Source of the DNA: Candidatus Aenigmatarchaeota archaeon
Lineage (GTDB): Archaea > Aenigmatarchaeota > Aenigmatarchaeia > GW2011-AR5
DNA length: 37,981 nt
Direction of reading: 5' to 3'
Assembly (NCBI GenBank): GCA_016198685.1
Contig: JACQID010000001.1
Span: 1 to 37,981 of the forward strand
Both the position numbers and the translations under genes were made by a program. The notes under the pieces are model-generated. The model made no database searches. It had not been told where the DNA came from and worked only from the letters and a program-made list of their open reading frames with translations. Position 1 is the stretch's first letter; the number at the start of each line of letters is the position of its first letter. This document shows, piece by piece, positions 9,677-16,103 of this stretch.

Positions 9677-9771
9677 TTTTACGCACCCCCAGTTTTCAGA
9701 GCCGGGTTATGACCTTGCTCACATTTCTCTTAAACGGGAAGATATTTAAGGATAGAACGTGTCGTAGAATT

Positions 9772-10266
9772 ATGCCAACGCCAGCAGAAAATGCGCGAGC
9801 CTTTGTGACTATATGGAACACGAGATTTCCCCTGTTGAATATGGGGGGTGCTGTTATATACGGAGGCAGCCAGCATGATATTGAAAGGAGGGGTAATAAT
9901 GAATATGTTGCCGGCCTTCTCGGCAGGCTCGAAGAAACGCTCAAAGGTGCCTATGTAACGGCGTCATGCAGTGAATATCTTAGCGAAACGGCCAGAAGAT
10001 CTTTTAGAATAGGAATGCCTCCGTCCATGAGGGTGCCATTGTATGCACTCGACATAGACGAGGCTAATGCGCGATACGGCATTTTTTCCAACGACACGGA
10101 AAATCTCGCTGCTATAGAGACCGAGCTTCTAGAAGTCCAAGAAGAAGCGACCCGGGAACTTGAAATGATGGCACTATTGGGATTCACGACGCCGAACGAT
10201 ATGAAGTATTTGAACCAAAGATGGCGGGCGGAATTTGGGGAAAAATACGGATTGAAAAATAAATAA
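9772..10266 (+). CDS. Hypothetical protein (ORFan)
   Basis: 164-aa ORF with protein-like composition. The ATG at 9772 follows ATTTAAG at 9744-9750, so it is preferred over 9709. Confidence 0.6.
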   Translation: MPTPAENARAFVTIWNTRFPLLNMGGAVIYGGSQHDIERRGNNEYVAGLLGRLEETLKGAYVTASCSEYLSETARRSFRIGMPPSMRVPLYALDIDEANARYGIFSNDTENLAAIETELLEVQEEATRELEMMALLGFTTPNDMKYLNQRWRAEFGEKYGLKNK

Positions 10267-10551: not shown

Positions 10552-11925
10552 ATGGAATGGCCAATTTTTTATAAAAGTGAACTAAAGCTTGGCAAGGGCT
10601 CGGCTGCTATATGCACTCTTTGGACAAAAAAGGAGATAATCTGGAAGGCGCTTGACGAAGGCGGCTACAGCGTCTGCGCAAATCTTTATACAATTCAAGG
10701 AATAAACCCGCTCATCAAGAACGTTCTGGCGCGGCCGGAAATAAGGACCATAATACTGTGCGGAGCCGATCTCATGAAGAGCGGGGATGCGATTCTTAAC
10801 CTCATGAAAAATGGAATTGATGCAGAAAGAAAAATAATAGGCTCTGCAGGTATCATAGATTCCAATATTCCATTGGATGCTCTGGAAAAATTCCGGCAAA
10901 ACGTGCATATCATAGATATGCGAGGAAAGGAAAGTGAAATCGCAAGCGAAATTGCAAAATATACGAACCAAGAATCATTTATGGAGCCTCTTTTTATAAC
11001 AGAACTTGACAAGGTTTCATTCCCTCTTTATACTAAAGAGCCGGTATTCAAAATATTTGGAAGATCGCCTGACGAGGCATGGCTCAAGGCATTGGACGTC
11101 GTAACGAAATTTGGGGACGAAAAGCCTACAGAATATAATGCAAAAATGAAGGAAGTGATAGGCATAGTTGCGGTCATCGAGGAAGATATAGAAAGCGTAT
11201 TTCTCTCAAAGGAGGATGCTGAAAACTATTACAAGACGGTCTTCTCGGCGCAGAAGCCAGATGGGGTCGAATATACCTATGGAGAAAGATTATTTTCTTT
11301 CAATGGGCGCAATCAGATAAAACAGGTAATTGAGCGCATTAAAGCAACTCCTTATACAAGAAGGGCTACTGCCGTAACATGGGATATTTCCAAAGACAGC
11401 GAAAGCAACAATCCGCCTTGTCTGACTCAAATAATGTGGAACGTCAAGGACAAGAAGCTCTATCAGACCTGTATCTTTCGTTCCCATGACATATTTGGCG
11501 CATGGCCTCTCAATGCATATGCTATGAGAAGATTGCAAAAATATATGGCACAAGAGCTTGCTATGGAAACAGGACATCTAGTAATACTTTCCAATTCTGC
11601 ACATGTCTATGAGCATGATTGGAGACGTGCAGAAGACATGGTGCACAACAATTATTCAGGCAAAATAACAACGTTTGAGGAAGATGAAAACGGATATTTT
11701 GTACTGAATGTCGATAATGGAGAAATAAGTGTACAGCATTATCTGAAGGATGGGAGGAAGAGCGATTATCTCTTTCGGGGAACCAAGGCTCAGGTTCTCT
11801 ACAGACAGATAACACATGAAAATTTATTTTCAAGATACGACCATGCCGCATACATCGGTCATGAGCTTGCGCGCGCCGAGACGTGCCTTAAAAATGGAAA
11901 ACGTTATGTTCAGGATGAAGCTTGA
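10552..11925 (+). CDS. thyA: Three-domain fusion: MtrA-like N-terminal domain, archaeal-type thymidylate synthase ThyA, DUF4346-like C-terminal domain
   Basis: ThyA catalytic set: TRRA, PPC(290), RSHD(310-313), WPLN(321), HVY(351-353). N-terminus AICTLW...NLYT.QGIN.LIKNVLARPEIR.IILCG...IIGSAG.IDSNIP..A.EKFR is MtrA-like. C-terminus DENGYF...HAAYIGHELARAE.CL..G..YVQD is DUF4346-like. Confidence 0.88.
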   Translation: MEWPIFYKSELKLGKGSAAICTLWTKKEIIWKALDEGGYSVCANLYTIQGINPLIKNVLARPEIRTIILCGADLMKSGDAILNLMKNGIDAERKIIGSAGIIDSNIPLDALEKFRQNVHIIDMRGKESEIASEIAKYTNQESFMEPLFITELDKVSFPLYTKEPVFKIFGRSPDEAWLKALDVVTKFGDEKPTEYNAKMKEVIGIVAVIEEDIESVFLSKEDAENYYKTVFSAQKPDGVEYTYGERLFSFNGRNQIKQVIERIKATPYTRRATAVTWDISKDSESNNPPCLTQIMWNVKDKKLYQTCIFRSHDIFGAWPLNAYAMRRLQKYMAQELAMETGHLVILSNSAHVYEHDWRRAEDMVHNNYSGKITTFEEDENGYFVLNVDNGEISVQHYLKDGRKSDYLFRGTKAQVLYRQITHENLFSRYDHAAYIGHELARAETCLKNGKRYVQDEA

Positions 11926-12057: not shown

Positions 12058-12507
12058 TTAACCCAGGAAATTGCCTGCGATAGCGAACAAAATAAATGTC
12101 GTTACAAAGCTCACGAGCATGAAAGTTATGTATCTGAATCCCATGGTCTTATAGACTGTTGTAACCATCAACGCCGAAACAATATGATAGAAGCCGAACA
12201 TTATGGCTGCTATCTGCAGATAAGGTTGATCATTGAACATGCCTGTCAGGGCGCCGGTCATGCCTGCGAGGGGTATCACGAACATCGCATGGCCCCACTG
12301 CTTGCTTCTCCATATATAATATGCAATCGCAATGAGGATGCCATAAATAGCGCCGTCATTTATGCCTCCGATATAACCTGTTGTTATTGCACAGAAAACA
12401 ACAGTGTCAAAGCCTCTCCTGTAAGCGCCGAGATAAGGGCTGATTCGCCTGAAGAAAAAGTTCAGCGCCAGAGATATAAGGAATATTACCGGCACAGATA
12501 CAGCCAT
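12058..12507 (-). CDS. Membrane protein, ECF-transporter S-component-like
   Basis: 149 aa with 5-6 TM segments. GFDTVVFCAITTGYIGGINDGAIYG resembles the S-component TM2-TM3 G..GP..G motif. Confidence 0.55.
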   Translation of the reverse strand: MAVSVPVIFLISLALNFFFRRISPYLGAYRRGFDTVVFCAITTGYIGGINDGAIYGILIAIAYYIWRSKQWGHAMFVIPLAGMTGALTGMFNDQPYLQIAAIMFGFYHIVSALMVTTVYKTMGFRYITFMLVSFVTTFILFAIAGNFLG

Positions 12508-14891: not shown

Positions 14892-16103
14892 TTATACTTC
14901 CGGATATATCGGGAATCCGGAACACAGGTCTTGCACGTCCTTGCGGACATTCTCGCCTTTCATGGCGCGGTTCATGAGGGAGCCGACTTCCTGCATGTCT
15001 TTTTCCTTCATGCCGCGCGAAGTAAGCGTAGGCGTTCCGAAGCGTATGCCTGAAGGATCCCACGGCTTTCGCTGGTCATAGGGAACGGTATTCTTGTTGA
15101 CGTAGATGCCGTTCTTTTCAAGCAGCAATTCGGCATCTTTCCCCGTTATTTTCTGTTCAAGGTCTGCGAGTAGCAGATGCGAGTCAGTGCCGCCGGAAAC
15201 GAGCCGCATCTCGACTGCCTTGGCAAGGGCTTTCGCGTTGGTTATTATCTGCCGGGCGTAATCCTTGAACCCCGGCTTCATTGCTTCGGCAAAGCACACG
15301 GCTTTGGCGGCTATGGCGTTTTCATGGGGGCCGCCCTGCAGCCCGGGAAATATCGCTTTGTCTATTTTCTCGGAAAATTCCTGCCTGCAGAGTATCATGG
15401 CGCCGCGCGGGCCTCGAAGAGTTTTGTGCGTTGTCGTCATTACAATGTCGGCATACGGAACCGGTGACGGATAAGCCCCACCGGCAACAAGTCCTGCAAA
15501 ATGTGACATGTCTACAAACAGCTTAGCACCGACAGAATCGGCAATCTCGCGGAACCTTCTGAAATCAATCACGCGGGTATATGCGGTATAGCCGCAGAGA
15601 ATCATTTTAGGATTGTGCTGCTTTGCAAGTGATTCTATTTCATCATAATCGAGAAGCTCATTGTCCTTGCGCACGCGGTATGGCACGGCGTTATAGTCTG
15701 TTCCTGAAAAGTTGATTTTTAGGCCGTGAGTTATATGCCCGCCGTGTGACAGTTCGAGTCCCATGAATGCATCGCCCTTGTTAAGAAGTGCCCGGAATAC
15801 AGCTTGGTTTGCAGGCGAGCCTGAATAAGGCTGGACGTTCACGTGTTCTGCTCCAAAGAGCTTCTTTGCCCTTTCAATAGCAAGGTTTTCTATCTCGTCA
15901 ATAACTTCATTTCCGCCGTAATATCTCTTTCCAGGATAGCCTTCTGAATACTTGTTATGCGGAAAAGAAGAGAGTGCTTCGAGGACTGCAAGCGACGGTA
16001 TATTCTCTGAAGGTATCAGTTCAAGACCGTTTCTCTGGCGTTCCAGCTCCTTCATGACAAGGGCAAAAACGTCAAAATCCCCTTCTTTGAGCTTTGCAAG
16101 CAT
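14892..16103 (-). CDS. glyA: Serine hydroxymethyltransferase (bacterial-type motifs)
   Basis: Motifs LELIPSEN, YSEGYPGKRYYGG, NVQPYSGSPAN, HGGHITHG, DMSHFAGLV, PLP-Lys TTTHKTLRGPRG and PSGIRFGTP. Confidence 0.98.
   Translation of the reverse strand: MLAKLKEGDFDVFALVMKELERQRNGLELIPSENIPSLAVLEALSSFPHNKYSEGYPGKRYYGGNEVIDEIENLAIERAKKLFGAEHVNVQPYSGSPANQAVFRALLNKGDAFMGLELSHGGHITHGLKINFSGTDYNAVPYRVRKDNELLDYDEIESLAKQHNPKMILCGYTAYTRVIDFRRFREIADSVGAKLFVDMSHFAGLVAGGAYPSPVPYADIVMTTTHKTLRGPRGAMILCRQEFSEKIDKAIFPGLQGGPHENAIAAKAVCFAEAMKPGFKDYARQIITNAKALAKAVEMRLVSGGTDSHLLLADLEQKITGKDAELLLEKNGIYVNKNTVPYDQRKPWDPSGIRFGTPTLTSRGMKEKDMQEVGSLMNRAMKGENVRKDVQDLCSGFPIYPEV

Follow-up and report, generated by a model that had tools for sequence, protein, structure and literature searches.

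How a thymidylate synthase (ThyA) carrying a domain related to the corrinoid protein MtrA would make thymidylate (dTMP), and how it would do so in a genome lacking the usual partner of ThyA, dihydrofolate reductase (FolA), is the question raised by a gene at positions 10552–11925 of a 37,981-nucleotide stretch of DNA (the window) from a Candidatus Aenigmatarchaeota archaeon (GenBank assembly GCA_016198685.1). Thymidylate synthesis is thought to have two solutions, either ThyA together with FolA or the flavin enzyme ThyX. In the product of this gene, a ThyA core is set between an MtrA-like domain and a DUF4346 domain, and the fusion is very probably a dTMP synthase. With moderate confidence, we read it more specifically as a genuine ThyA-type enzyme whose truncated core would be completed by a module that was formerly a corrinoid partner, has lost cobalt ligation, and now holds or encloses the one-carbon (C1) pterin.

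The MtrA-like/ThyA/DUF4346 layout of the open reading frame (ORF) was confirmed by profile searches, in which all three domains exceeded their Pfam cut-offs (Table 1). These include the two flanks that had been described in the initial annotation as about 140 residues of MtrA-like and about 80 residues of DUF4346-like sequence. The central part was recognized by the Thymidylat_synt family (PF00303) and was also matched almost end to end by TIGR03283, the NCBIfam model of the methanogen-type ThyA (residues 171–358, model positions 6–199 of 201), with a score of 171.3 bits that falls narrowly below the cut-off of 174.55. The NCBIfam models for MtrA scored the fusion below their cut-offs (48.9 vs 249 bits for TIGR01111 and 75 vs 161 for NF002126), and no DHFR domain (PF00186) was detected in the protein by Pfam search. 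An AlphaFold2 model of the fusion built on 104 homologues had a mean predicted local distance difference test score (pLDDT) of 91.8 and a predicted template modelling score (pTM) of 0.67, with a single weak linker at approximately residues 151–160.

One argument for thymidylate synthesis comes from the ThyA core. In HMMER alignments to solved ThyA structures, residue numbers in the fusion correspond to those of E. coli ThyA plus 144, such that C290 is equivalent to C146, R270/R271 to R126/R127, R310/S311 to R166/S167, D313 to D169, N321 to N177, and H351/Y353 to H207/Y209. All of these residues, together with Y243, are invariant across the 104-homologue alignment, and E201 is at least 90% conserved. 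In the classical enzyme, D169 contacts the pterin, N177 specifies deoxyuridylate (dUMP) as the substrate, and Arg166/Ser167 bind its phosphate along with Arg126' and Arg127'. The catalytic set initially reported as intact (C290, R310-S311, D313, H351-x-Y353, with Asn321) is thus present and family-wide, and a codon-by-codon check placed each of these residues, as well as H431 and H437 of the C-terminal domain, at its expected position.

Classical ThyA (EC 2.1.1.45; E. coli and L. casei) shares its fold and the Cys, Arg, Asp, Asn, His, and Tyr set with the fusion core, but the two are only about 18–20% identical in structural alignments, and the core is without much of the N- and C-terminal elements that close over the cofactor in the classical enzyme. 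Judged by eye from the sequence, the folate-contacting segment also differs (in E. coli ThyA we take this segment to be Trp80/Trp83), and the DUF4346 domain stands in place of the C-terminal closing tail. Whereas classical ThyA has FolA as its partner, the fusion is not accompanied by it. A closer relative is the short ThyA of the TIGR03283 (MJ0757) type, which has the same truncated layout and catalytic residues and is likewise found in FolA-less organisms. The fusion differs from this type in scoring 3 bits under the equivalog cut-off and in having two extra conserved domains on the flanks of the core.

The N-terminal flank is the MtrA-like domain, a Rossmann-type domain that can be aligned over about 125 residues to MtrA, which carries the corrinoid in the methyl-tetrahydromethanopterin (methyl-H4MPT):CoM methyltransferase, and to soluble homologues of it (PF04208; PDB 5laa and 5l8x), and that has no transmembrane helix in the fusion. 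The cobalamin site of MtrA comprises the ligand His84, its hydrogen-bond partner Glu54, and a conserved meander, GAIPF-x-EN, and the nucleotide tail is received in a pocket formed by Thr53, Gly57, and Asn64 (Wagner et al. 2016, PMC4915002). In the HMMER alignment to 5laa, the homologue from M. fervidus, the segment LCGSEVQGHIVGQ was aligned to LCGADLMK--SGD of the fusion, with a two-residue gap exactly at 'GH', so the His ligand falls within a deletion. The canonical loop CG.E..GH..GQ accordingly reads CGADLMKSGD. The initial annotation had drawn attention to this loop as lacking the cobamide His, an observation that holds at residues 70–79 and extends to 37 of 38 diverse fusions. The loss is not limited to the His: in the fusion family TIQ, with a deletion, replaces TEN, the GH pair is missing, and SAGIID--SN stands in place of GAIPYxEN, again with a deletion, so that the equivalents of His84, Glu54, and the meander are all gone. 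The tail-pocket matches, on the other hand, are kept, with T47 (T or S) corresponding to Thr53, G50 (invariant) to Gly57, and N57 (103 of 104 homologues) to Asn64. Conservation across the domain is considerable (C21, W24, L45, G50, and G71 are invariant, and N44, Y46, N57, D73, R115, D122, and R124 are at least 90% conserved). The exception among the 38 is a fusion from a Candidatus Parvarchaeota metagenome-assembled genome (MAG), which retains both TEN and GH and whose core, at 200.9 bits, scores above the TIGR03283 cut-off. It is possibly an intermediate between corrinoid-competent and His-less forms.

The C-terminal DUF4346 domain, when modelled alone, was predicted to consist of three strands and two helices (pLDDT 93.4, pTM 0.83), and it carries the motif DHAAYIGHELARAE. 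H431 and H437 of this domain had been put forward as alternative ligands for the missing His, a proposal that the homologues do not bear out. H437 is not conserved among the 104 homologues, and H431, although at least 90% conserved, is equally conserved in partner proteins of a related split system (see below) that still have the MtrA His, which argues against its being a replacement ligand. Foldseek returned no match to the isolated domain at E ≤ 0.001, and the best VIA-align hits (Z 6.0, to ribosomal and EVH1/PH-like proteins) were under the background quoted for that tool; these searches gave no evidence of a new fold. The only domain partners of DUF4346 in the ESM Atlas were methanogen dihydropteroate synthase-like proteins, MtrA, and ThyA. 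The pterin-binding role implied by the Pfam label would fit these partners, by association only, and our literature searches on DUF4346 and PterinBD found no paper behind the name 'PterinBD'.

The fusion is not a peculiarity of one archaeon. A search of 5.8 billion proteins yielded 194 clusters for it, and nearly all of the 120 listed had the same three Pfam domains, with source names including Aenigmarchaeota, Woesearchaeota, Micrarchaeia, Thermoproteota, and Chloroflexi. In a further taxon scan, with each prokaryotic species represented by a single genome, full-length fusions were encountered in archaea (Nitrososphaera and a complete 'Thermoproteati' genome), Patescibacteria (WWE3, Saccharibacteria, and Shapirobacteria), Dehalococcoidales, MAGs labelled Clostridia and Gammaproteobacteria, and several cyanobacteria, including Trichormus azollae and Geitlerinema. 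A longer variant of about 600–610 amino acids, encoded in three genomes (G100, G101, and G106), is extended at the N-terminus and has about 90 additional residues inserted between its MtrA-like and ThyA parts. In the literature searched, we found no paper that describes the fusion architecture in functional or comparative terms, and the names in databases are 'thymidylate synthase' and 'DUF4346 domain-containing protein'.

If the fusion makes dTMP, its occurrence should be related to that of other thymidylate enzymes. The 371 genomes of the phylum were therefore classed by their best match to the family profile and crossed with ThyX, FolA, and RibD_C; these are related and often incomplete MAGs, and the counts are descriptive rather than a statistical test. 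ThyX was found in 29 of the 105 fusion genomes, 5 of the 42 with a short or split ThyA, 5 of the 43 with only a weak, presumably classical ThyA match, and 140 of the 181 with no ThyA-type match; the corresponding numbers for a strong FolA match were 6, 0, 19, and 1. Fusion and ThyX are thus largely complementary. An essential dTMP synthase would be expected to give this pattern if most carriers relied on the fusion, which must supply dTMP in the 76 fusion genomes that have no ThyX. FolA accompanies the weak, presumably classical ThyA matches and rarely the fusion. An anticorrelation between the fusion and dihydrofolate reductase had been suggested at the outset, and the data agree with it: FolA is missing from 99 of the 105 fusion genomes and present in 19 of the 43 presumably classical ones. 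In the single genome inspected where FolA and the fusion co-occur (G201), the fusion gene is followed co-directionally by a 139-amino-acid ORF, a classical 276-amino-acid ThyA (366 bits), and FolA, and the classical thyA-folA pair gives the impression of being an added cassette. The gene neighbours agree with a role in dTMP synthesis as well: among 39 fusion loci, the commonest was dCMP (deoxycytidylate) deaminase, at 11 loci, and thymidylate kinase was present at 4. No recurrent reductase neighbour was seen among these loci. RibD_C-like proteins, which have a dihydrofolate reductase-like fold, were considered as a substitute for FolA throughout the family and rejected, since no more than 17 of the 105 fusion genomes have them.

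An indication of where the flanking module came from was provided by a split form of the same system, in which a gene of about 270 codons for an MtrA-DUF4346 protein lies directly upstream of a short ThyA of about 260 amino acids. This arrangement was seen in four genomes of the phylum set (G299, G022, G312, and G169), in a Nealsonbacteria genome, and in two further assemblies (L024 and L025). In the complete Nealsonbacteria genome CP179887.1, the order is dcd, MtrA-DUF4346, thyA, one ORF, tmk, and deoC. The two-domain MtrA-DUF4346 protein forms at least 208 clusters from DPANN archaea and Patescibacteria, and a ThyA gene adjoined it in all three of the further contexts viewed, including that of Nealsonbacteria. 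Most of the split partners that were scored reached 165–184 bits against Pfam MtrA, the one from G022 exceeded the cut-off of an NCBIfam MtrA subfamily, and TEN, GH, and GAxP are kept in all those with a readable loop (the stretch is masked in G299). By these sequence criteria they look like real corrinoid proteins. The split-system ThyA is itself divergent, with Lys for R166, Gln for H207, and an insert of about 30 residues containing two or three conserved Cys, and the two-gene system is a candidate for a B12-assisted thymidylate synthase. Its products are annotated 'tetrahydromethanopterin S-methyltransferase subunit A' and 'thymidylate synthase'. Genes for dCTP deaminase and thymidylate kinase often accompany the split pair. 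Fusion and split system share their three domains, a nucleotide-metabolism context (dcd, tmk), and the absence of FolA, but the split system consists of two polypeptides and has kept the MtrA cobamide signature. The domain order also differs (MtrA-DUF4346 followed by ThyA in the split form, MtrA-ThyA-DUF4346 in the fusion), which indicates that the fusion did not arise by simple read-through of the operon.

The relationship of the two forms was examined in a quick maximum-likelihood tree of ThyA cores (LG+G4, with a single, long-branched classical outgroup and branch support solely from the Shimodaira–Hasegawa-like approximate likelihood ratio test). The His-less fusions formed one clade (support 98), the split ThyAs formed another (support 100, with a long stem), and the two clades were weakly supported sisters (support 82). 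Core-only ThyAs of Methanobacteria and Thorarchaeota grouped apart from both, and within 4 kb of them neither an MtrA nor a DUF4346 gene was present. The initial annotation had proposed that the accessory domains were repurposed from methanogenesis machinery. A derivation of the module from MtrA-type corrinoid proteins is upheld, but a specific link to methanogenesis or tetrahydromethanopterin (H4MPT) is not, because the fusion also occurs in cyanobacteria and in bacteria of the candidate phyla radiation (CPR). Other arrangements of the same parts were encountered. In G263, an operon divergent from a gene resembling that for serine hydroxymethyltransferase (SHMT) encodes MtrA, MtrH, a stand-alone DUF4346 protein of 112 amino acids, and a short ThyA. 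MtrH adjoins a ThyA core in this genome and in G020, the only 2 of the 371 phylum genomes that have it, and it was consequently rejected as a general partner. Separately, a 389-amino-acid protein in G224 joins a His-bearing MtrA domain and DUF4346 to a NUDIX domain and is encoded beside CTP synthase, another pairing of the MtrA-DUF4346 module with nucleotide metabolism.

The host genome provides the immediate setting for the fusion. It belongs to a DPANN archaeon, a tiny symbiont, and comprises 935 kb on 8 contigs, with the window on contig 4. It is 93.7% complete; no match to FolA (PF00186) was found anywhere in it, and searches for MtrH, FolD, FolP/Pterin_bind, B12-binding domains, and methylenetetrahydrofolate reductase (MTHFR) were also negative. 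The fusion is its sole ThyA, MtrA, or DUF4346 homologue. Upstream of the fusion, a 185-amino-acid ORF (positions 9709–10266) gave no match to a ParB/Srx fold and did not group with the genes flanking other fusions. A tandem ThyX begins 660 bp downstream, such that two non-homologous thymidylate synthases adjoin in a 0.93-Mb genome, a pairing that recurs in a genome of the same genus (G199). The ThyX protein scored 69.8 bits against TIGR02170, which is below the cut-off, and had no sequence match in the PDB. Further downstream is the gene for SHMT, which provides methylene-pterin with its C1 unit. The searches, which did not cover purine-synthesis and formyl-transfer enzymes, identified SHMT and the two thymidylate synthases as folate-dependent enzymes. 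A stand-alone RibD_C protein encoded on contig 2 is a candidate dihydropterin reductase by its fold family. ThyX would close the pterin cycle without any reductase, whereas the fusion would have to rely on the RibD_C-like protein or on a property inherent to itself. Since no dihydrofolate reductase was visible in the window, one had been regarded as a missing requirement; FolA is indeed absent genome-wide, but the need for it was overstated for this host because ThyX is adjacent and the RibD_C-like protein is available.

Table 1. Coordinates of the features discussed. Positions refer to the window unless a contig or locus is named.
Feature	Position	Strand	Basis
Whole gene, MtrA-like / ThyA / DUF4346 protein, 457 amino acids	10552..11925 (stop codon within end coordinate)	+	Open frame, three Pfam domains
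MtrA-like domain of Rossmann type (residues 2-140) with degenerate cobalt ligation	10555..10971	+	PF04208, E 4.5e-16, 59.4 bits (cut-off 25); aligns to 5laa, 5l8x
Loop CGADLMKSGD, residues 70-79	10759..10788	+	HMMER alignment to 5laa; loop tabulated in 104 homologues and 38 diverse fusions
Short archaeal (methanogen-type) ThyA core, about residues 165-372	11044..11667	+	TIGR03283; PF00303 (residues 235-372, E 1.6e-20, 73.8 bits, cut-off 24.3; 75 bits in genome scan); PDB ThyA alignments
PterinBD-DUF4346 domain, residues 377-455	11680..11916	+	PF14251, E 1.3e-22, 80.8 bits (cut-off 29.6), model positions 1-86 of 86; domain model
Very hydrophobic protein, 149 amino acids, between thyA and thyX	12058..12507	-	ORF; Pfam search negative up to E 5
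Tandem ThyX (flavin-dependent thymidylate synthase), 527 amino acids	12585..14168	+	PF02511, 149 bits, two Thy1 stretches
Serine hydroxymethyltransferase GlyA (SHMT), about 3 kb downstream	14892..16103	-	PF00464, E 3.2e-154
Stand-alone RibD_C protein, 191 amino acids	contig 2:19959-20534 (L107:2960-3535)	-	RibD_C (dihydrofolate reductase-like fold)
His-bearing fusion, Candidatus Parvarchaeota MAG	L057:3860-5332	+	TEN and GH retained
Variant fusion in G100	L018:2714-4546	-	N-terminal extension and insert
Fusion with classical thyA-folA in G201	L108:1409-4742 (G201:C48)		Four co-directional ORFs
Split system in G022	L020:970-2701		MtrA-DUF4346 upstream of short ThyA
Split system in Nealsonbacteria, CP179887.1	L023:4438-7944		MtrA-DUF4346 upstream of short ThyA
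MtrA / MtrH / DUF4346 / ThyA operon in G263	L017:794-4726 (G263:C10)		
MtrH beside ThyA core in G020	G020:C2:19026-20901		
MtrA(His)-DUF4346-NUDIX fusion in G224	L015:2684-3853 (G224:C50)	-	389 amino acids

Taken together, these observations can be accommodated by a scheme in which the fusion would most likely form dTMP from dUMP through the standard covalent mechanism that depends on the Cys, using a methylene-tetrahydropterin bound at the canonical site. The pterin is probably scavenged folate charged by the nearby SHMT. The accessory module would descend from a separate corrinoid-type MtrA-DUF4346 partner, of the kind that is still encoded upstream of ThyA in sister lineages, and the fused lineage has lost the cobalt-ligation network (the His, its Glu partner, and the GAIPF-x-EN meander) while keeping residues like those of the tail pocket. 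This combination of losses and retentions suggests that the module acts as a cofactor-holding element or lid rather than in cobalt chemistry. In the host genome, the oxidised pterin may be recycled by the RibD_C-like protein, or the need to do so may be bypassed via ThyX.

Several points weigh against this scheme. The lid or cofactor-holding role of the module is an inference only; the whole-protein model reached a pTM of 0.67, and the DUF4346 domain has no solved analogue. ThyX is also encoded in the host, and the fusion gene may consequently be redundant there. Both FolA and RibD_C are missing from about 80% of the fusion genomes, so that a canonical ThyA would leave dihydropterin without a known reductase, which favours a less canonical mechanism. 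The short ThyA of a methanogen reportedly gave partial reactions and no dTMP with either methylene-folate or methylene-H4MPT (Krone et al. 1994); canonical chemistry is for this reason not guaranteed for the fusion. Finally, MtrA variants with the His mutated are reported to still bind corrinoid (Harms & Thauer 1997), which makes a bound cobamide compatible with the loss of the His, and other corrinoid proteins function without a His ligand.

The main rival of the lid scheme is a cobamide-assisted enzyme. In this case, the MtrA-like domain would hold a His-off corrinoid, as in the corrinoid iron-sulfur protein, that accepts a methyl group from methyl-tetrahydropterin, bound by DUF4346 or at the ThyA site, and donates it in a redox-neutral transfer to C5 of dUMP, which the Cys has activated; alternatively, the corrinoid would supply electrons. 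Either way, no dihydropterin would be formed and FolA would be unnecessary. We consider this explanation unlikely, but it is sustained by the split system, which keeps the full cobamide-binding signature in the protein directly upstream of ThyA, and by the lack of FolA and RibD_C in most carriers. The tail-pocket residues of the His-less fusions, the TEN and GH of the Parvarchaeota fusion, and the position of MtrH, a methyl-pterin:corrinoid methyltransferase, next to the ThyA core in G263 and G020 all point in the same direction. The fusion family has, however, lost three cobalt-ligation elements, and its corrin-carrying loops contain indels. Its ThyA has retained the canonical residues for pterin and hydride transfer, in contrast to the split ThyA with its R166K and H207Q equivalents and Cys insert. 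In addition, the host genome has no MtrH, MTHFR, or other B12-binding domain, and the chemistry is without precedent.

It was initially suggested that the accessory domains may form a cofactor-binding or recycling module. Taken as a built-in, non-FolA dihydropterin reductase, this would make the fusion a functional analogue of the protozoan bifunctional dihydrofolate reductase-thymidylate synthases (DHFR-TS). We regard such a reductase as improbable. The absence of FolA from nearly all fusion genomes fits, the N-terminal domain has a Rossmann-type fold, and both proteins combine a thymidylate synthase with an N-terminal alpha/beta domain. DHFR-TS chains were indeed the top Foldseek matches of the full model, over about 450 aligned columns. 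However, in these alignments the root-mean-square deviation (rmsd) came to about 18 Å and the template modelling (TM) score to about 0.35, meaning that only the ThyA part truly superposes; the N-terminal domains are unrelated in sequence, and, given the rmsd, the matches were rejected as evidence for a DHFR-like N-terminal domain. Strand 1 (ICTLWT) was not seen to be followed by a glycine-rich dinucleotide loop, the sequence shows no evident flavin or Fe-S motif, and the proteins taken to be the ancestral partners look like corrinoid carriers rather than reductases. With no reductase recurring among the neighbours either, only the phyletic data fit a built-in reductase. Moreover, no such module lies within 4 kb of the short ThyA of Methanobacteria and Thorarchaeota, and methanogens are not known to have FolA either.

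It is similarly doubtful that the accessory domains are non-catalytic, serving as a scaffold for oligomerisation, stability, or regulation that remains from the former partnership. The lost cobalt ligands and the existence of a core-only short ThyA in methanogens and Thorarchaeota would be explained in this way. Both domains, however, show strong purifying selection on polar, pocket-like residues in bacteria and archaea alike, and the architecture is maintained in about 190 clusters. Least probable of all is that the fusion is not the dTMP synthase of the cell and carries out another pyrimidine C5 modification (hydroxymethylation or hydroxylation) or acts on another nucleotide. In its favour, the fusion and the adjacent ThyX are both intact in so small a genome, and ThyA-fold enzymes of short type with different chemistry are known: the best target-normalised TM scores (0.72–0.78) were to the flavin-dependent dCMP hydroxylase structures 9iqu and 9iqc. 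Against it, the uracil-specifying Asn at the N177 position is invariant, most fusion genomes have no ThyX, and the neighbours are dCMP deaminase and thymidylate kinase.

The fusion architecture is already visible in databases and is widespread; what is new is its comparative setting, namely its distribution relative to ThyX and FolA, its gene neighbours, the split form, and the single clade of His-less fusions. This account describes a third configuration for thymidylate synthesis, in which ThyA consistently occurs without FolA and is fused to, or encoded beside, a module derived from a B12 carrier. As a tentative proposal, the MtrA-DUF4346 module may mark an undescribed FolA-independent thymidylate route, in which a corrinoid or its degenerate descendant, together with a small pterin-binding domain, would let a minimal ThyA use methyl- or methylene-pterin without releasing dihydrofolate. 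If true, the split, cobamide-competent form would be a vitamin B12-dependent thymidylate synthase and the fused form its cobalt-free derivative, and many 'MtrA' genes counted as remnants of methanogenesis in DPANN and other lineages would be nucleotide-metabolism genes. Ancestral reconstructions have taken the presence of MtrA (arCOG03221) as a marker of methanogenesis (PMC9635834, PMC13473441). Those homologues of MtrA that were encountered here in DPANN and CPR lineages travel with thymidylate synthase instead and may bias such inferences. The genome studied here is a less acute case, as it also encodes ThyX and a RibD_C-like protein. The fusion and split family is nevertheless common in the smallest known cells, the DPANN archaea and CPR bacteria, and the function of the module could explain how folate-poor symbionts keep making DNA.

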